48,613 bases of DNA from Escherichia phage haarsle, in sequence record NC_049828.1; one strand, 5' to 3'. The notes beneath the pieces were generated by a model. That model made no database searches and was not told the origin of the DNA. It saw only the letters and a list, made by a program, of their open reading frames with translations. Below are positions 26,237-48,613 of this stretch, piece after piece (position 1 is the stretch's first letter; each line of letters starts with the position of its first letter). Position numbers and translations under genes: made by a program.

Positions 26237-26515
26237 TCACCCCCAAAAAGTATATATATATCTTGAATCAGAACCAGAAAGTCCATCCCATGTAACGGTA
26301 TCGCCACTTACACCTAAATTTGGAGCGCCAGGATCGCCACCGCGCCAGGAGTTCATGCCAACATATATTGCTTTCAATGATTTACCTGGCGGCCTGTTTT
26401 GATAAGTCTTACTACCGGATGGTTGAGTGAATTTATCAAGGAAGAAAACAGGCGTTAAAAGTCCTGTAACTTCCCTTCCTCGATCGTCATATATTGCATA
26501 CCCATACTCAGCCAT
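26237..26515 (-). CDS. hypothetical protein (92 aa)
   Basis: RBS GAGG 7 nt before the ATG; overlaps the lipoprotein stop (coupled). Confidence 0.5.
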   Translation of the reverse strand: MAEYGYAIYDDRGREVTGLLTPVFFLDKFTQPSGSKTYQNRPPGKSLKAIYVGMNSWRGGDPGAPNLGVSGDTVTWDGLSGSDSRYIYTFWG

Positions 26516-26789
26516 TTTTGCACCTCAAATCAATAAATTTACTTTCATTTTGCCAACGGTTGATAAATTTAACTTCTTTATTGTCAACGCTCAACCTGTA
26601 TTGTTTTTGGCTGAATCTGTTTTCGCGTACTGCATTAATTTTAACTTCATGGAATCCGTTAACAGGGAATGTTTTAACGTTAAATTTTGCCGTGCAGTCG
26701 ATCTCATTGAAGTTGCCAGTAGGAGACGCTGCGCAACCGGTCAGAGCGGTTACGGTGGCGATAACTGCGATTAATTTTTTCATCTTCAA
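26508..26789 (-). CDS. lipoprotein (93 aa; lipobox LTGC); Cor-like superinfection-exclusion candidate
   Basis: Signal peptide plus lipobox read from the translation; RBS GGAG; position after tail genes and own promoter are typical for a moron. Confidence 0.55.
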   Translation of the reverse strand: MKMKKLIAVIATVTALTGCAASPTGNFNEIDCTAKFNVKTFPVNGFHEVKINAVRENRFSQKQYRLSVDNKEVKFINRWQNESKFIDLRCKNG

Positions 26790-26814
26790 TACTCCTTAGT
26801 TGTCGTTGCCTGTA

Positions 26815-26857
26815 ACTATACACGATCCGACAAGCGGCGTTTAGCAAAAAGTGCTAT
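26815..26857 (-). promoter_or_regulatory. Promoter-like module M3 (variant ATAGCACTTTTTGCTAAAC, TATAGT)
   Basis: Minus-strand 20-mer at 26839-26857, 21-bp spacer, -10-like; drives the lipoprotein cassette. Confidence 0.55.
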
Positions 26858-26886
26858 TCTGTTCTTTTTGTTCTCGCGTGTTCTCA
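26858..26886. repeat. 3 direct TGTTCT repeats at ~10-bp phasing (26860-65, 26869-74, 26879-84)
   Basis: Read from the sequence; analogous to the left-end TGTTAT array. Confidence 0.55.
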
Positions 26887-26929
26887 AATCTGCGGAGTCT
26901 TAAATTTAGCTCAAAAAGTGAACAATAAT

Positions 26930-27115
26930 AGAGCGCAATACATACAGATAAATATATATACATACATATAAATCAATAAGTTAGTAGTATATATATTTAT
27001 ATTTGTTCTTTATTGTTATCTGTGTTTTGTGTGATTTTGTGTTTCTGGTGATTTTTATGTGATTATGCATGTGTCAGTGATTATGTGTGTCTATATATCT
27101 ATATCCGGCGCAAAT
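26930..27115. repeat. AT-rich tract followed by TG-rich GTGATT(T/A)T repeats
   Basis: Low-complexity region; resembles 150-300. Confidence 0.5.
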
Positions 27116-27116
27116 T

Positions 27117-27145
27117 GAGGAACAAGAGAACAAAAAGACAACAAA
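27117..27145. repeat. Inverted (AGAACA/AACA) copies of the TGTTCT repeat
   Basis: GAGGAACAAGAGAACAAAAAGACAACAAAG read from the sequence. Confidence 0.45.
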
Positions 27146-27227
27146 GATATTTATCAATCACTTACATGTAAGTTTTGTTATCCAAGTTGACGAGAACGTT
27201 GTTAAAACAGAAAAAACAAAATAACTA

Positions 27228-27255
27228 TTGACTAAACGCATCAAATAGCTACAAT
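27228..27255 (+). promoter_or_regulatory. Sigma70-type promoter (TTGACT-16-TACAAT) for the recombination operon
   Basis: Near-consensus hexamers about 30 bp upstream of the exonuclease gene. Confidence 0.65.
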
Positions 27256-27284
27256 GCAGACATACCAACCAATGAGGGCAAATC

Positions 27285-28346
27285 ATGAATAAGTTTATGG
27301 CGTACACCAGCGAAGAAATGAGCAATGAGCTTTATCACGATCCAGAAGCGTGGACGGCTGATTATGTTAGCGGATCAAGCCTTGCAGAGATTTACAGCAC
27401 ATGCCCGGCGGCGTGGAAGTTCAAGCCTCGTGACGATAAGAGCAAGGCGCTTGTTTTCGGTACGCAGTCGCATACCAACTTTGAAAGCAAGGAGTTATTC
27501 GAAAAAACCTATCGACGCGCGCCAGCGCCAGAAGACTTTAAGGATCTGATAACTAGCCAAACTGCGCTTGCCGCAAAACTGAAATCATTTGGCCTGAAAG
27601 GTACAACCGGAAATACTTACCCAGAACTTATAAAAATGATGGTTGACTGTGGCGAAGACCTTAACGTTATGTGGTTGATTGAGATGATCGCAGAAAGCCA
27701 AGCTATGACCGACGGAGTGCAGTTAATCGACGCTAAAGACTACGACGCTTGCGTTGCAATGCGCCAAGTTCTGGAATCAATACCGGAACATAACGCATGT
27801 ATGAATAGCAAGACAGCACAACGTGAATTATCGTTGTTCGGTGAAATCAACGGCGTAAAAGTCAAAGTGCGATGCGATCACGTTGACGTAACAAAGAACG
27901 TCACCGCAACGCTGATTGATGGTTACGATGAAAAAGGTCAGCCGATTTGCCGCGATATTATTTATCCAGAGGCCATTGTGATCACAGACTACAAAACCAC
28001 AATGAGCGCGAATCCGGCTGAGTTTATGCGCCTGGCTTACAATCACGGCTATTATTTGAAAATGGCGTTGCAATGTGATTTATTCAGGAAAGCGTATCCA
28101 GAAGAAAAGCGACCTATAGTTGTTCGCCTGTTAGCCCAGGAGAAGAAAGAGCCTTATTTGCCGCTGGCTTTCCGCATGAACAACGAGCAATTGAAGATTG
28201 GGCGCATTCAGTACATGAGCGTAATTAACCAGTTTGCCATGTGCCAGCAACATGACGTTTGGCCTTCGTATTCAAACGGTGAGCCTGAGGTTTGCCTTGA
28301 TACTCCTGATTGGGTGCGCCGCCAGTTTAAGCAATATCTTATTTAA
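27285..28346 (+). CDS. recombination exonuclease, PD-(D/E)xK family (353 aa)
   Basis: Nuclease-like motif region (ITDYKT); first gene of an exo-ERF-SSB module. Confidence 0.55.
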   Translation: MNKFMAYTSEEMSNELYHDPEAWTADYVSGSSLAEIYSTCPAAWKFKPRDDKSKALVFGTQSHTNFESKELFEKTYRRAPAPEDFKDLITSQTALAAKLKSFGLKGTTGNTYPELIKMMVDCGEDLNVMWLIEMIAESQAMTDGVQLIDAKDYDACVAMRQVLESIPEHNACMNSKTAQRELSLFGEINGVKVKVRCDHVDVTKNVTATLIDGYDEKGQPICRDIIYPEAIVITDYKTTMSANPAEFMRLAYNHGYYLKMALQCDLFRKAYPEEKRPIVVRLLAQEKKEPYLPLAFRMNNEQLKIGRIQYMSVINQFAMCQQHDVWPSYSNGEPEVCLDTPDWVRRQFKQYLI

Positions 28347-28352
28347 ACAGCA

Positions 28353-28388
28353 CAAATAGCTAAACAAATGAAAAATGTGGTGTTATAA
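28353..28388 (+). promoter_or_regulatory. Extended -10 promoter candidate (TGT-TATAAT at 28380-28388)
   Basis: TGnTATAAT read from the sequence upstream of the gene at 28428. Confidence 0.45.
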
Positions 28389-28751: not shown

Positions 28752-29408
28752 ATGAAACTATCAGAGCAATTCGACAAGGTTTTACCAGCGCTGCATAAGG
28801 CTCGCAGCTTGTTTGTGAAGGTTAAAAAGGACAAGCAAAACACTCACCTTAAAAATCGTTACGCAACGCTTGATGCAGTTCTTGATGCAATCACTCCGGC
28901 GCTAAACGATAACGAATTAATGCTTATGCAGGATATGATTGAAAGCGATCAGCCAAATAGGATTAAAGTTGAAACGACAGTGCTTCATGTGTCCGGTCAG
29001 TACGTTAAATTCTATGCTGAGTTGCCAATCGTTAAAAACGATCCTCAAGGTGTCGGATCTGCATTCACATACGCGCGTCGCTATGCAGCAGCAGCAGCAT
29101 TTGGCTTAAGCCAGGCAGACGATGACGCACAGATTGCCGTTAAATCTGCAAACGACTGGAAGCGTGACATTGAGAAATGCGAAAGCGTAAACGAATTACA
29201 AGAAGTGCTCAAATCAGCATGGAAGGCAAGCGATCCGGCAAGCAAGCAGGTAATTAAAGAGCATTACGAAAAGCGCAAGGCAGAACTTGAGATCGGAAAA
29301 GCACGAGGATTTAATCCAGCGCAACCAAAACAAAATCTTGCCGCTCAAGACGTTGACACAAAAAACGACGAGCAAGTAAAATCACAAAGCATAACTGATT
29401 TTGAATAA
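28752..29408 (+). CDS. ERF-family single-strand annealing protein (218 aa)
   Basis: [12 protein letters not shown] and FTYARRYA motifs resemble the ERF superfamily; located between exonuclease and SSB. Confidence 0.65.
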
Positions 29409-29452: not shown

Positions 29453-29893
29453 ATGCATATTATTACTGGTGAGATCCGAAAAGAGCCGCGAGTAAAGCAA
29501 ATGCCTAACGGCAGCACGCTTTATGTAGTTGAGCTTTCAGAGCGATACAAAGATAAAGATGGAAACTGGCAATATACAAACTACAGTTTCTTTTTTAATG
29601 CTAAAACAGAAGGTCTTAATGGTTGGTATGCTGAGGCGTTCCAGGTTGGAAAGGTTATTTCTGTATCTTGCGACACGCTTCGCATAGAAACGCGTGAATA
29701 TAACGGAAAGATGTATTCAAGTTTAATGCCTGGTGGATTCGCAAATCTTATATTCAGCCAGCGCGGAGAAGGCCAGCCGCAACAGCAACAACAAGGAGGA
29801 TGGGGCCAACCACAGCAACAGAATCAACAGCAACAACAACCAAAACAAAGCAATCAGCCTCCTATGGACTTTGACGACGACATTCCTTTCTGA
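29453..29893 (+). CDS. ssb: single-stranded DNA-binding protein (146 aa)
   Basis: OB-fold-like N-terminal region, Gln/Gly-rich linker and acidic C-terminal tail DFDDDIPF. Confidence 0.85.
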   Translation: MHIITGEIRKEPRVKQMPNGSTLYVVELSERYKDKDGNWQYTNYSFFFNAKTEGLNGWYAEAFQVGKVISVSCDTLRIETREYNGKMYSSLMPGGFANLIFSQRGEGQPQQQQQGGWGQPQQQNQQQQQPKQSNQPPMDFDDDIPF

Positions 29894-34060: not shown

Positions 34061-34993
34061 TTAGAGAAGTGATTCAGGTTTGTAAACCTTCCTCTCTATC
34101 CCTTTCCTGTAATTATCATTAATCGGCATCATAATTTCAAGTCCTCTTTCCTCGGCAGCAATGATCGCGTCACGGTCTGTACTCTTACAGACAACTCTCA
34201 TTCTTCTGTTTCCCTTATACCTGTAAGCCACAATCTCAATGTTAGTTGCATCAAAGCAGGCCCAAACCTCTTGACCAGTTGCAAGGTGAATATGTTGCGC
34301 ATCAATCCAGTCAACGCAAAGATAGATCGTCTTATCTGTGCTTCCTGTTCTCACAACAGACCCGCGCGTGTAGTCCTTTGCGAGAAAAGACTGTTTACCC
34401 TCTTCATCAATGAAAAGCACATTGCACATTTCATCATCAATATCATCGGAATGCACCAGGTAACATGGTAACGCGTGAATGTATCGACCATCTTTAACGC
34501 CGCATTCATAATAACCATCTTCAGGAGGATATATCCCTTCATAGGAGCTTAACGGCGTGCGATCAAATTTTAGTGTTTTTGACATAACGCGCTCGCAGCA
34601 TTCATGGCTTGCCTGTTTCCCAAACGAATAACCAGAATCACGAGACACTCGCTTATTTGCCTTAATTCTATAGTCCTGCGGAACTTTTCCAAGAAAGCGA
34701 CCCAAAATATTGATCACTTCGCTGTAAGGTTCTCCGGTTAGCTTCATGATCCAACCGATTCCAGTATCGTTTCCGCACACGTTGCAGATAGCGCCGCCGT
34801 CGCCTTTTTTATCTCCAAGTTTATCCGTCCATCTAAAGCGATCCTTTCCGCCGCAGTGGGGGCAAGATTGATGCTTGCCGTTAAAAACTTCATTTGGAAG
34901 ACCGCAAATACTTTGTAGCGCCTCACGCCATAATCCCTGCATATATGGGAGAACATCTTCCTTTTGATAAACCATAAAGTTTTCGTTGTTCAT
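34061..34993 (-). CDS. DNA primase (zinc-ribbon CPHCGGKDRF plus Toprim-like region, 310 aa)
   Basis: Primase-type zinc-binding motif; start at MNNENF with RBS GAGG. Confidence 0.7.
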   Translation of the reverse strand: MNNENFMVYQKEDVLPYMQGLWREALQSICGLPNEVFNGKHQSCPHCGGKDRFRWTDKLGDKKGDGGAICNVCGNDTGIGWIMKLTGEPYSEVINILGRFLGKVPQDYRIKANKRVSRDSGYSFGKQASHECCERVMSKTLKFDRTPLSSYEGIYPPEDGYYECGVKDGRYIHALPCYLVHSDDIDDEMCNVLFIDEEGKQSFLAKDYTRGSVVRTGSTDKTIYLCVDWIDAQHIHLATGQEVWACFDATNIEIVAYRYKGNRRMRVVCKSTDRDAIIAAEERGLEIMMPINDNYRKGIERKVYKPESLL

Positions 34994-35005
34994 ATGCACC
35001 TCAAA

Positions 35006-35046
35006 CAAAAAAGCCTGACAGATGATAACATCATGCCAGGCATTGT
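35006..35046 (-). terminator. Terminator-like hairpin (GCCTG..CAGGC with flanking A/T runs)
   Basis: Inverted repeat with a long loop. Confidence 0.4.
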
Positions 35047-35048
35047 TT

Positions 35049-35522
35049 TTAGCAATTAGTGCTTTCAGGTTTATACAGGAATCCGCCAGGCTCATAATCT
35101 GACATTCTTACCACTCGCAACATTTCACGCTTATCACATCTCTTTGTGAGCGGTTTGCCATTGGAATCAAATCGCAGGTCTGGGCGGCAGAATGATGCGC
35201 GATAGCCTTGACATCCATATTTTTTGTAATCGTTATGCACCTTTTGAGCGCCAGCGGCTGAAATCATACCGCGAACACGCCACTGATTTACAGTTTGCTG
35301 GCTAACGTTAAGACGTTTTGCCATTGCTGACACACTTCCGTAATACTCAATAAGGATGTCAAGACGTGCTTTTAGTCCGGCGCGCACTTCATCTTTTAGT
35401 ACATAATATCCTGTAGGGCGCTTGCGTTTCTTCTTATCCTTGCCTCGTCTGGTTCCGTTATTGCCATTAATTGTGCGCTTGTCAATCTTGCCAGTTGATA
35501 CTGCGATTCGCTGTTCTTTCAT
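35049..35522 (-). CDS. helix-turn-helix DNA-binding protein (157 aa)
   Basis: HTH-like segment AMAKRLNVSQQTVNQW and basic N-terminus; RBS GGAG. Confidence 0.55.
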   Translation of the reverse strand: MKEQRIAVSTGKIDKRTINGNNGTRRGKDKKKRKRPTGYYVLKDEVRAGLKARLDILIEYYGSVSAMAKRLNVSQQTVNQWRVRGMISAAGAQKVHNDYKKYGCQGYRASFCRPDLRFDSNGKPLTKRCDKREMLRVVRMSDYEPGGFLYKPESTNC

Positions 35523-35534
35523 TACTCATTCTCC

Positions 35535-35578
35535 AATAGCATTTTTTGTTAAACGATGATTTAATGATTGTGTATTAT
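35535..35578 (+). promoter_or_regulatory. Promoter-like module P8 (ATAGCATTTTTTGTTAAACG, TATTAT) in the divergent region
   Basis: 20-mer at 35535-35554 with 21-22 bp spacer to a -10-like hexamer; upstream of the helicase gene. Confidence 0.5.
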
Positions 35579-35611
35579 ACACGCCAAATGGCATTACTCA
35601 AAGGTTTTAGA

Positions 35612-42856: not shown

Positions 42857-44440
42857 TTACCCCAGCAATGTTGGATTTACAAAAACAACGCCATTAATCA
42901 CACAAATATAATTTCTTTCTTCAAGCATCGGCAGCAGTTGCGTTTCCATACGCTTCATTACGCCAGCCTGGCCAACAAACGGCTTAACTTTTCGTGCAGC
43001 CTCATATATGGCGCGCACATTCAAGATCCCCTTGTTAGCCTTACCGTGTCGAGTGATGATCTCGATTAGTTTACCCATTTCAGCATCATCACCAGCATAG
43101 CCAGAAGCGTTGGCGGCGCTAATGTATGTTTTGCTCAACTCGCTAAACATCAGCAATGCTTCCTGAACGGTTTCAACCTCAATCTCTTTCGACTTCTGAG
43201 GGTATCCACCAGGATTAAACCAATTGCGGATAGTGTGCAAAACCGAAGCAATCCTGATCACCTGCTTATCCATTTTGCCAAGCGCACCTCGCAGCATTGT
43301 ATGCGAATACTTTCCGCCATCAGCAAGATGCGGTTCCATCTCCTGACGAGCCATGTTAAGCACTCGCATTGCGGATTTGCTGATCTTAAGCTGGATGCTT
43401 GATTCGCTCATGATGTTATGGATCAGCTTAAAATATTGGCTTTTCAGTTCTCCATCAACAGGTTCATAAGTCGAATCACCGTTATCATCAACAAATTTTC
43501 GACGACCTAAAAATGATTCTTCACGCACAAGCAAATAACGTTCACTCACACCGATACCGCGCGATCCTGCATCCATGATGGCATTAATTGTTTCATCCTG
43601 GGCAATTACTGCCATACAGCCAAGAGCTTTAAAACTCATGTTATTGTCTGCGTTTGCGCGAGCTATAGAAACATGACCGTGATCCCATGCTTTCAGCACA
43701 AGTTCGCTGTTGGTTTTACGTTCGCTATTTGCATATGTCAGACCTAAAAGGCTGTTAATACTCGTTGCCTCGTCTGAAATTACAGCAAAGTTACCCTGGC
43801 GATTGTTGATTCTTGCAAGTCCTTCAGGTGTGGTATCGGACACAGGGAAAACAATGTCACACATCTTTTCAAGTTTTTCTTCAAGATCTTCTTTCTCCTG
43901 GTATAGCGATTCCATATCAGCGCCAGATCGCTCGCTTTTCATCTCTTTTGCAAGACCTGCCAACTTTGCCTGAATCTTTTTCCGCTCCTTCTTTCGCTGA
44001 TCATTAATTCTTTCCACTTCAGCAACCATAGGAGCAAGAGCCAGGCTGTTAACGGCAGATTTACCAGTTGAAGGAGGCTGGCTTGTGACAACATAAAGAG
44101 CGGTTGGCTGATCCGTTCCGTGATACTCAACCGTGAATCGCCCAAGCATTGCAGCAGACACACAGCCGATAAAATGCATATATGCCGATGATTCAGGGAA
44201 TTGAACAGATCGAGCAATGTTTCGCGCCAACTTTCCAACAACATCAACATCATTGCCAAGAGAAATTACAGGGTAGCGATCGTTTCCGTTATTAACATCA
44301 TTAACCTCACCCCAAAAGCTGGACGATTGACGGTATCCGTTAGCCTGAATGGACACGCGCACCGGAGACAATCCTTGTGCATCAGCTAATTCGATAATTT
44401 GTTTTGGTGTTAGTTTATTGGTTTCAAACGAAAAATTCAT
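42857..44440 (-). CDS. P-loop NTPase-like protein of unknown function (527 aa; Walker A SQPPSTGKS)
   Basis: Start at MNFSFE with RBS AAAGGAG; Walker A read from the translation. Confidence 0.5.
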   Translation of the reverse strand: MNFSFETNKLTPKQIIELADAQGLSPVRVSIQANGYRQSSSFWGEVNDVNNGNDRYPVISLGNDVDVVGKLARNIARSVQFPESSAYMHFIGCVSAAMLGRFTVEYHGTDQPTALYVVTSQPPSTGKSAVNSLALAPMVAEVERINDQRKKERKKIQAKLAGLAKEMKSERSGADMESLYQEKEDLEEKLEKMCDIVFPVSDTTPEGLARINNRQGNFAVISDEATSINSLLGLTYANSERKTNSELVLKAWDHGHVSIARANADNNMSFKALGCMAVIAQDETINAIMDAGSRGIGVSERYLLVREESFLGRRKFVDDNGDSTYEPVDGELKSQYFKLIHNIMSESSIQLKISKSAMRVLNMARQEMEPHLADGGKYSHTMLRGALGKMDKQVIRIASVLHTIRNWFNPGGYPQKSKEIEVETVQEALLMFSELSKTYISAANASGYAGDDAEMGKLIEIITRHGKANKGILNVRAIYEAARKVKPFVGQAGVMKRMETQLLPMLEERNYICVINGVVFVNPTLLG

Positions 44441-44467
44441 TGATGATAACTCCTTTTTGATGCGGCA

Positions 44468-44511
44468 ATAATACCGCACCAATGCTACCCGCATTTAACA
44501 AAAAATGCTAT
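44468..44511 (-). promoter_or_regulatory. Promoter-like module M5 (ATAGCATTTTTTGTTAAATG, TATTAT)
   Basis: 20-mer at 44492-44511 overlapping the TAG stop at 44508-44510; 22-bp spacer. Confidence 0.55.
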
Positions 44512-48407: not shown

Positions 48408-48442
48408 TTGCTATCTCCTGAGAGGTTCGTTTCGATGTGTGT

Positions 48443-48486
48443 AATGTACCCGATCAGGCGGATTCAGTTTTAACAAAAAGTGCTAT
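48443..48486 (-). promoter_or_regulatory. Promoter-like module M9 (TACATT; spacer contains GATC)
   Basis: 20-mer at 48467-48486; 22-bp spacer; leader CATCGAAACGAA. Confidence 0.6.
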
Positions 48487-48494
48487 TTCTCAAC

Positions 48495-48613
48495 TGGCGA
48501 TTATTCCATCTATTCCATTAATCAGGAATAACAGGAATAACTCATTCGAGATCACCTGGATTGTGAGATCTTGAGTTTGATCAATTTTAATCAGTTGATT
48601 AACTTTTTGTGTG
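48495..48613. repeat. Right-end repeat region: 2 TATTCCAT, 2 AGGAATAAC (9-bp phasing, mutually inverted), 3 GATC sites within 33 bp, palindrome TTGATCAA
   Basis: Read from the sequence; non-coding. Confidence 0.5.

Follow-up and report, generated by a model that had tools for sequence, protein, structure and literature searches.

A duplicated hexamer-repeat and A+T-rich module upstream of the exonuclease gene of Escherichia phage haarsle as a candidate replication origin of T1-like phages

The 48,613-nucleotide sequence record NC_049828.1 of Escherichia phage haarsle, the whole of which is referred to here as the window, is the complete genome of a T1-like siphovirus (Drexlerviridae, Hanrivervirus-like), and the element under study is a repeat-bearing module in the non-coding gap at 26790-27284, between the leftward gene for the Cor lipoprotein and the rightward exo-Erf-SSB genes. 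A first-pass annotation of the sequence had given this region as 400 bp, while the actual gap measures 495 bp. The flanking open reading frames (ORFs) are 26508-26789 on the minus strand and 27285-28346, 28752-29408 and 29453-29893 on the plus strand, in agreement with the annotation of Escherichia phage damhaus (Drexlerviridae, Tempevirinae, Hanrivervirus), which names a Cor superinfection-exclusion lipoprotein on the leftward side and exonuclease VIII, Erf and SSB on the rightward side. Damhaus was the best of the 114 phage records matching 26700-27400, with an identity of 97.9% across the gap itself and 94% across the wider piece. The gap is made up of phased TGTT[C/A/T]N hexamers in both orientations (forward at 26860-26884, 27004-27045 and 27176; reverse at 26918-26924, 27119-27143 and 27193-27225), arranged around an 88% A+T core and a GT-skewed spacer, with a sigma-70 promoter as the last element. 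The features are as follows.

26860-26884, plus strand: Array A, TGTTCT at 26860, 26869 and 26879, with spacings of 9 and 10 bp
26918-26924, minus strand: reverse copy GTGAACA, with 7 of the 8 bases of the phage P4 type-1 repeat GGTGAACA
26925-27003, no strand: A+T-rich core, 12-22% G+C
26971-26983, plus strand: first match to the integration host factor (IHF) consensus, AATCAATAAGTTA fitting WATCAANNNNTTR, in the loop of an inverted repeat
27004-27045, plus strand: Array B, TGTTCT at 27004, TGTTAT at 27014, TGTTTT at 27023 and TGTTTC at 27040, positions kept in relatives
27029-27099, plus strand: GT-skewed spacer with four copies of GTGATT, at 27031, 27048, 27059 and 27077
27105-27115, plus strand: conserved G+C block CCGGCGCAAAT at the right edge of the spacer, consensus of the relatives CggCG.AAaT
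27119-27143, minus strand: Array C, GGAACA at 27119-27124, AGAACA at 27127-27132 and CAACA at 27139-27143
27152-27164, plus strand: second match to the IHF consensus, TATCAATCACTTA
27160-27173: perfect 14-bp palindrome ACTTACATGTAAGT, overlapping the second IHF match and found in close relatives only
27173-27182, plus strand: promoter-proximal forward site TTTTGTTATC
27193 and 27204-27225: promoter-proximal reverse sites, AGAACG at 27193 and the A-rich AAAACAGAAAAAACAAAATAAC at 27204-27225, abutting the -35 hexamer
27228-27255, plus strand: early sigma-70 promoter TTGACT-16-TACAAT, a 10/12 match
downstream of the promoter: conserved AATGCAG start region, Shine-Dalgarno sequence GAGGG at 27274 and exo start codon at 27285

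The elements that had been listed at first pass, namely three TGTTCT repeats, the GTGATT repeats, the inverted AGAACA copies and the TTGACT-16-TACAAT promoter, all lie where they had been placed, and the list of arrays was incomplete in that it lacked the forward copies at 27004-27045 and 27176, the reverse copies at 26918-26924 and 27193-27225, and the two IHF-consensus sites. Clusters of TGTT[AC]T or its complement occur at only two places in the 48.6 kb, 1-350 and 26800-27200. The gap contains 15 TGTT/AACA cores, and the number of same-strand pairs of these cores at 9-11 or 19-21 bp was 9, in comparison to 0.97 +/- 1.1 in 2000 shuffles which preserved local composition, none of which reached 9. 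The GT-rich stretch, which had been described as a run of TG-rich repeats, does carry GTGATT copies and a strong skew, the GC skew reaching +0.73 and the AT skew falling to -0.78; a power spectrum computed from the TGT positions (26995-27100, and 185-290 at the left end of the window) showed no significant peak at 9-10 bp, and the idea that the stretch extends the phased array was dropped for this lack of a periodicity of its own.

To place the module in its family, 44 related contigs were retrieved through the exo gene, and 26 non-redundant Tempevirinae-type modules, that of the window included, were aligned. The layout was kept in all 44 relatives examined. In the alignment every array, the G+C blocks, two IHF-like blocks and the promoter stand at conserved positions, and the core spacings peak at 9-10, 19-20, 27 and 36 bp. 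The Array A positions are kept with the consensus TTTTGTTcc / TGTTc, two reverse copies stand at the equivalent of 26918-26924 (AaCAaaAAgAACA), Array C reads gtgAACAa.g.gAACA...AACA, a block aaaATCA...acTtAc is conserved around 27152-27173, and the promoter is conserved as gTaTTGACta..TA.AATGCAg. The sequence and length of the GT-rich spacer differ among relatives, some lineages having insertions. On either side of the A+T core stand TGTTCAC (about -400) and GTGAACA (about -171), pointing towards each other; this 7-mer is 16-fold enriched over background in the modules, and GTGAACA is found at the fixed position of about -171 in 17 of the 26. The IHF consensus has eight matches in the window, two of them in the 495-bp gap; it recurs at about -317 and/or about -136 from the exo start codon in 14 of the 26 modules, and in TLS-like phages with one mismatch. 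These are candidate IHF sites, proposed from consensus matches.

The A+T core, which holds a perfect 14-bp inverted repeat (26948-26961 / 26987-27000), is also the point of lowest duplex stability in the genome. Based on nearest-neighbour energies, the least stable 60-bp duplex genome-wide is 26942-27001 at -56.6 kcal/mol, and the second is 136-195 near the left end at -59.3 kcal/mol, in comparison to -64.3 for the third-ranked window of this size and a genome mean of -81.6 +/- 4.9, so that the two cores lie about 5 standard deviations below the mean. The complete T1 and SRT8 genomes likewise have their two least stable 60-bp stretches in the two modules, and eight further lineages show the lowest stability of a 20-kb locus in the exo-upstream module; the instability is thus kept despite diverged sequence.

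The second unstable core belongs to a second copy of the module at the left end of the record. In the relative L144 the right and left ends of the window are contiguous, which means that the window is a whole, permuted genome and that the left end is also an internal gap, running from 48408-48613 into 1-468. The features of this copy, 1-468 on the plus strand, are given below.

60-93: four copies of TGTTAT
110-143: ATAACA copies
136-195: A+T core
190-290: TG-rich stretch
286-296: CCGCGC, the counterpart of the G+C block CCGGCGCAAAT
305-407: reverse and forward copies
408-443: promoter TTGACA-18-GATAAT

The first-pass annotation had held that the exo-upstream region is built like the left end and had proposed aligning the two, and an alignment of 1-468 against 26790-27284 was significant beyond low-complexity composition. 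The local alignment score was 49 in comparison to 22.2 +/- 2.9 for dinucleotide shuffles (z 9.2), and z was 6.4 against shuffles of 40-nt blocks. The best-scoring partner tile of the left region within the whole window was the focal gap, the global alignment was collinear from the first hexamer array through to the promoter, and BLAST with the left region of haarsle recovered the exo-upstream region of other phages. The two regions, both lying upstream of strong sigma-70 early promoters, are paralogous copies of one module, a relationship that goes beyond compositional likeness. The left modules of relatives were located by BLAST searches in which the left regions of haarsle and T1 served as queries, since counting repeated 6-mers had proved too noisy for their detection.

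Some further observations were made at the left end. A contig with an exo protein 98% identical to that of haarsle matches the left module only to position 84 (comparison of the window with L144 and L094) and carries beyond it a different module version and a different first gene, so that the module is a mosaic breakpoint. The record begins within a conserved hairpin at 1-28 (GAGGGGAT...ATCCTCTC), which is internal in related contigs, T1 and SRT8 and is a possible mark of where packaging starts. Two copies of TTATTCC and two of GGAATAA form an inverted-repeat cluster at 48502-48540, in the stretch that separates the left module from the rightmost leftward promoter; the cluster, likewise present in T1 and SRT8, is a candidate site for a regulator or terminase.

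In spite of the constant layout, the hexamer itself varies by lineage. The dominant hexamers are as follows.

haarsle and close relatives: TGTTCT / TGTTAT
TLS-like phages: TGTTC(A/C/T)
T1 genus: TGTAAC / TGTTAC with TGTATA
SRT8, exo module: TGTAAT, ten copies
SRT8, left module: TGTCTA

In a Tempevirinae genome the two modules have one hexamer family in common, whereas they differ from each other in T1 and in SRT8. A binding protein shared by the two copies, as had been suggested, is therefore in keeping with the haarsle genome, where the hexamer family is common to both, and less so with T1 and SRT8, whose modules have different dominant hexamers. Because the hexamers differ among phages which share E. 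coli as host, the comparison points to a binder that is phage-encoded rather than a host factor. The left border of the module also varies: in TLS-like phages it is a terminator hairpin instead of Cor and its leftward promoter. The placement between divergent operons that had been emphasized at first pass is thus not conserved, and the module goes with the exo promoter rather than with two divergent promoters.

The 149 matching phage records all derive from enterobacterial hosts, and they are T1-like wherever taxonomy or flanking annotation was examined; among the matching records listed, nearly all carry no annotation here, and some carry small hypothetical proteins. Eighteen GenBank records entitled 'Campylobacter phage' (MG065640-MG065687) are T1-like genomes about 91% identical to the coliphage region, and these probably have a wrong host assignment or are contaminants. 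Outside phages, no similar sequence was found in a search of 5,426 E. coli genomes and 72,556 plasmids.

The module closely resembles, by analogy of layout, the ori and crr loci of phage P4. In the P4 record (NC_001609) both loci are annotated as arrays of a 'type 1 repeat', which we read as TGTTCACC; its 16 copies are spaced 9-11 bp apart, run in both orientations and are divided between two loci separated by about 5 kb. The two systems share short direct and inverted repeats at 9-11 bp beside A+T-rich DNA, the presence of two separate cis loci (in haarsle about 55-445 and 26858-27284), and the core TGTTC(A)(C), which is the consensus of the Tempevirinae modules, although the full octamer TGTTCACC is rare in the modules, haarsle having the one 7/8 copy at 26918-26924. 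The haarsle primase (34061-35095) is homologous to the alpha primase domain, matching P4 alpha residues 22-262 with E = 1e-11, and it also has a Zn_Ribbon_Prim domain. The resemblance fails on the origin-binding domain and the helicase class: the haarsle helicase is a separately encoded superfamily 6 (SF6), DUF3987 protein, and the alpha origin-binding domain and superfamily 3 (SF3) helicase were not found. In addition, the haarsle hexamers are looser (TGTTNN) and lineage-variable, and the module is larger, with a GT-skewed spacer and a sigma-70 promoter fused to it.

Two other groups of origins offer partial parallels. Like pSC101, R6K and the lambda origin, the module has arrays of putative initiator sites by a meltable A+T segment together with candidate IHF bending sites, and activation by nearby transcription and co-evolution of iterons with their initiator would be further points of likeness to theta-plasmid and lambdoid origins. 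The iterons of those origins are, however, 17-22 bp long and about two helical turns apart, most of the origins carry DnaA boxes (the pattern TTWTNCACA has two matches in the window and none in either haarsle module), and there is one copy per replicon, that of lambda lying within the initiator gene. The origins of Staphylococcus aureus pathogenicity islands (SaPIs) and other phage-inducible chromosomal islands have hexamer to octamer iterons on both sides of an A+T-rich region, bound by the Rep helicase, an arrangement which resembles that of haarsle; in these islands the iterons and the helicase match in a lineage-specific way, and primase and helicase are the sole replication proteins encoded by the element. 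The SaPI origin, however, lies directly downstream of pri-rep, whereas in haarsle both modules lie at a distance from the genes for the helicase (42857-44494) and the primase (34061-35095), and no match of helicase and iteron emerged from the haarsle comparisons.

The DUF3987 helicase is encoded at 42857-44494 on the minus strand. Its family has been described as SF6 helicases of the replicative type, related to MCM, which carry a winged helix at the C-terminus and mostly occur together with a primase (PMC4889955), and helicase activity has been demonstrated for one member (PMC11724360). The last ~85 residues of the haarsle protein form a separable, less conserved unit, for which a single-sequence AlphaFold model was poor (predicted local distance difference test score, pLDDT, of 47.6) and compatible at low confidence with a winged-helix topology. 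A profile search of the PDB with this C-terminal domain gave no meaningful match, a homolog search returned eight close relatives only, too few for a useful alignment, and hhalign of the helicase C-terminus with the P4 alpha C-terminus gave a probability of 0.3%. The DUF7174 protein, encoded by the first gene of the left operon, was set aside as a candidate binder, as it lacks relatives of solved structure, the window contains no paralog of it, and neither T1 nor SRT8 has a detectable homolog.

Taken together, our preferred reading, held tentatively and at somewhat less than even confidence, is that the region is a composite replication-origin module, consisting of iterons, an unwinding element and an early promoter, and present twice in the genome, at 26858-27284 and at about 55-445. 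In its favour are the most easily melted DNA of the genome, the convergent phased arrays on either side of it, candidate IHF sites at fixed positions, a replication set made up of a primase and a helicase from a winged-helix-bearing family, and the lack of DnaA boxes. The genome holds no other origin candidate, and no better candidate for the replication origin of T1-like phages than the exo-upstream module has emerged so far. A layout that stays constant while the hexamer varies by lineage would be predicted for an origin and its initiator, and a host factor does not readily account for it. The re-annotation of TLS published in 2024 stated that T1-like genomes had yielded neither iterons nor an origin (PMC11447400), a statement that makes the module worth testing. 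We did not find the module or an origin of the T1 family described in the searchable literature, and an earlier mention in the T1 or Rtp genome papers is possible.

We infer the following course of events for such an origin. A phage-encoded initiator would bind cooperatively to the hexamer arrays, with their spacing of about 9-10 bp, which stand opposite one another with the A+T core and the GT-skewed spacer between them; IHF of the host would bend the DNA at one or two fixed sites so that the arrays are folded into a compact complex; this complex would melt the A+T core; and the MCM-like (SF6, DUF3987) helicase and the P4-alpha-type primase would be loaded at the melted core. The early promoter at the right edge would fire away from the core, as would the leftward promoter on the other side in haarsle, and both would supply negative supercoiling that may aid opening and couple initiation to the start of infection. 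A more specific form of the proposal, in which T1-like phages have either two paralogous origins or one origin and a crr-like enhancer, where the MCM-like SF6 helicase and P4-alpha-type primase would assemble at P4-like TGTTC-type iterons flanking an IHF-bent unwinding element, with an immediate-early promoter fused to each origin, is possible though less likely than not.

Several results weigh against the origin proposal. An early promoter stands at a fixed distance in each module, and the arrays could accordingly be purely transcriptional. A phage of 48 kb would not normally be expected to have two origins, though P4, SPP1 and T4 are precedents. The GC skew tracks gene orientation only and is uninformative on an origin. 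No phmmer match to the P4 alpha origin-binding domain or SF3 helicase was obtained among the ORFs of the window, T1 and SRT8. There is no clean covariation of the helicase winged helix with the hexamer class, contig 2974610512 combining T1-type hexamers with a Tempevirinae-type winged helix. The Cro-like helix-turn-helix (HTH) protein (ST23 family) was rejected as the specificity determinant, its HTH being identical in IME347 and SRT8, whose hexamers differ. The suggestion that the origin would be recombination-dependent is not supported: its sole tie is the neighbouring gene, and the second copy of the module precedes unrelated genes; recombination-dependent replication moreover requires no specific cis site. 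The wider suggestion of an origin-like or early-operator role does fit the anatomy.

The early-operator half of that suggestion is the alternative which survives best, and we regard it as possible though on the unlikely side. Here the arrays would serve control of early promoters only, a phage early protein repressing or boosting the two sigma-70 early promoters, with the A-rich proximal part as an UP element and the A+T core as a bent upstream segment; candidates for the binder are the Cro-like HTH protein (Cro/YdaS-type HTH, 35049-35522, minus strand) and a small early protein. The whole window has only three intergenic sigma-70 promoters with matches of at least 10/12, at 408 and 27228 on the plus strand and 35601 on the minus strand, and the first two of these near-consensus promoters are the right-hand ends of the two modules, which thus end at a fixed distance in promoters sharing TTGAC...AATGCAG. 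The same number has been reported in TLS, including P51 before the exo gene (PMC11447400). The promoter-proximal sites abut the -35 hexamer, the left module of T1 has a pair GTGTAACA / TGTTACAC downstream of the -10, a typical operator position, and the HTH protein is itself made from the third early promoter. However, a module of about 400 bp with at least 13 sites reaching 370 bp upstream is far above what such control usually needs, and the third early promoter works without any hexamer-array module, the gap beside the HTH gene holding a different palindrome and no hexamer arrays. No site overlaps the core promoter of haarsle exo, the nearest ending at 27225, upstream of the -35; the conserved extreme instability and the convergent arrays would lack a role; and the HTH recognition helix is identical across phages with different hexamers. 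The fusion to a promoter is compatible with a transcription-activated origin and equally with purely transcriptional arrays, and the large size of the module together with a third early promoter that has none tips the balance towards an origin, not decisively.

That a host response regulator (an OmpR/TorR/ArcA-type winged-helix protein) or H-NS binds the arrays and so links early expression to host physiology is improbable. Sites of the OmpR/PhoB family typically consist of direct repeats of 5-7 bp spaced 10-11 bp apart, the TorR box CTGTTCATAT resembles TGTTCA, and the A+T core would attract H-NS; yet phages of E. coli carry TGTTC, TGTAAC, TGTAAT and TGTCTA in one and the same layout, and the search of E. 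coli genomes and plasmids described above gave nothing similar.

Still less probable is a packaging or genome-end element, in which the arrays would be sites for the small terminase subunit, like the pac sites of P1 and SPP1, and the focal copy a secondary or vestigial pac. The left module does lie about 55 bp from the record start, near the hairpin at 1-28 and the TTATTCC/GGAATAA palindrome at 48502-48540, and the pac of phage P1 has hexamer clusters flanking the cleavage region together with an IHF site. The focal copy, however, is 27 kb from the genome end in all lineages, and the hairpin and the palindrome are missing from it and so fall outside the shared architecture. T1-like phages package from a single pac site, and the pac candidate of TLS was placed by similarity to the P22 consensus, outside this module (PMC11447400), both of which count against a packaging role.

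The least credible alternative, an untranslated RNA or small protein with the repeats as by-product, draws on the small hypothetical proteins of some GenBank records and on ORFs of 40 and 45 codons inside the module (26841-26963, minus strand; 27087-27224, plus strand), which are probably not genes as the indels of relatives, not divisible by three, break the reading frames, and it is countered further by varying spacers, by most records annotating nothing, by the lack of any Rfam match in 26300-27700, and by the folding of six 136-141-nt pieces on both strands, which was unremarkable except for the A+T inverted repeat, a feature that is symmetric on both strands and hence of the DNA level.

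The region delimited at first pass contains, besides the repeat module, a separate promoter-type element at its left margin.

26815-26857, minus strand: leftward promoter of the Cor cassette, consisting of the 21-nt repeat ATAGCACTTTTTGCTAAAC (26857-26839), an 18-nt spacer and the -10 hexamer TATAGT (26820-26815)

The stretch 26857-26839 on the minus strand matches the T1-family repeat aaATAGCACnnnTTGnTAAAA with 0 mismatches; downstream, the start codon of Cor is reached 50 nt after the repeat and about 25 nt after TATAGT. The element is therefore a member of the T1-family 21-nt repeats, separate from the repeat and A+T module, and it is missing at this position in TLS-like phages. About 18 such elements occur in the window, each followed about 18 nt on by a -10-like hexamer. 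The 21-nt repeat has been described in TLS and T1 with its function left as an open question (PMC11447400). When the published mar/sox/rob box, AYnGCACnnWnnRYYAAAY (PMC3709825), was sought with at most one mismatch, 20 sites were found in the window in comparison to 1.34 expected; 18 of them were the 21-nt repeat ATAGCACnnnTTGnTAAAA, and two of the matches were perfect, among them 26839-26857 on the minus strand, which fits the marbox consensus in full. The repeat sites include this one, 28347-28365 on the plus strand and about 16 others, for example at 1196, 1659, 2643, 3986, 38060, 39080, 42326, 45169, 47088, 47594 and 48468. This likeness of sequence suggests that middle or late promoters of T1 may be activated by a Rob/MarA/SoxS-type protein. 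At the third early promoter, a palindrome GTGTATTATACAC at 35570-35582 lies over the -10 regions of back-to-back promoters serving the HTH-primase operon and the large helicase gene, and T1 has a comparable inverted repeat; the palindrome is a likely operator of the Cro-like HTH protein.

T1 is one of the founding T-phages and a notorious laboratory contaminant, and its replication origin is unmapped. The module supplies two defined, conserved 400-bp targets for direct testing. Should it prove to be only an array for early promoters, the circuit of immediate-early regulation in the family would still be defined by it. As an origin, it would tie the family-wide MCM-like helicase and P4-type primase to a specific loading site, explain the blank annotation in almost all of the matching phage records listed, and provide a way to engineer these phages or to interfere with them, decoy plasmids that bear the origin being one example. 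The more specific form of the proposal, if true, would provide an example from a bacterial virus of origin-specific loading of an MCM-like helicase, and the origin of a classical T-phage family.

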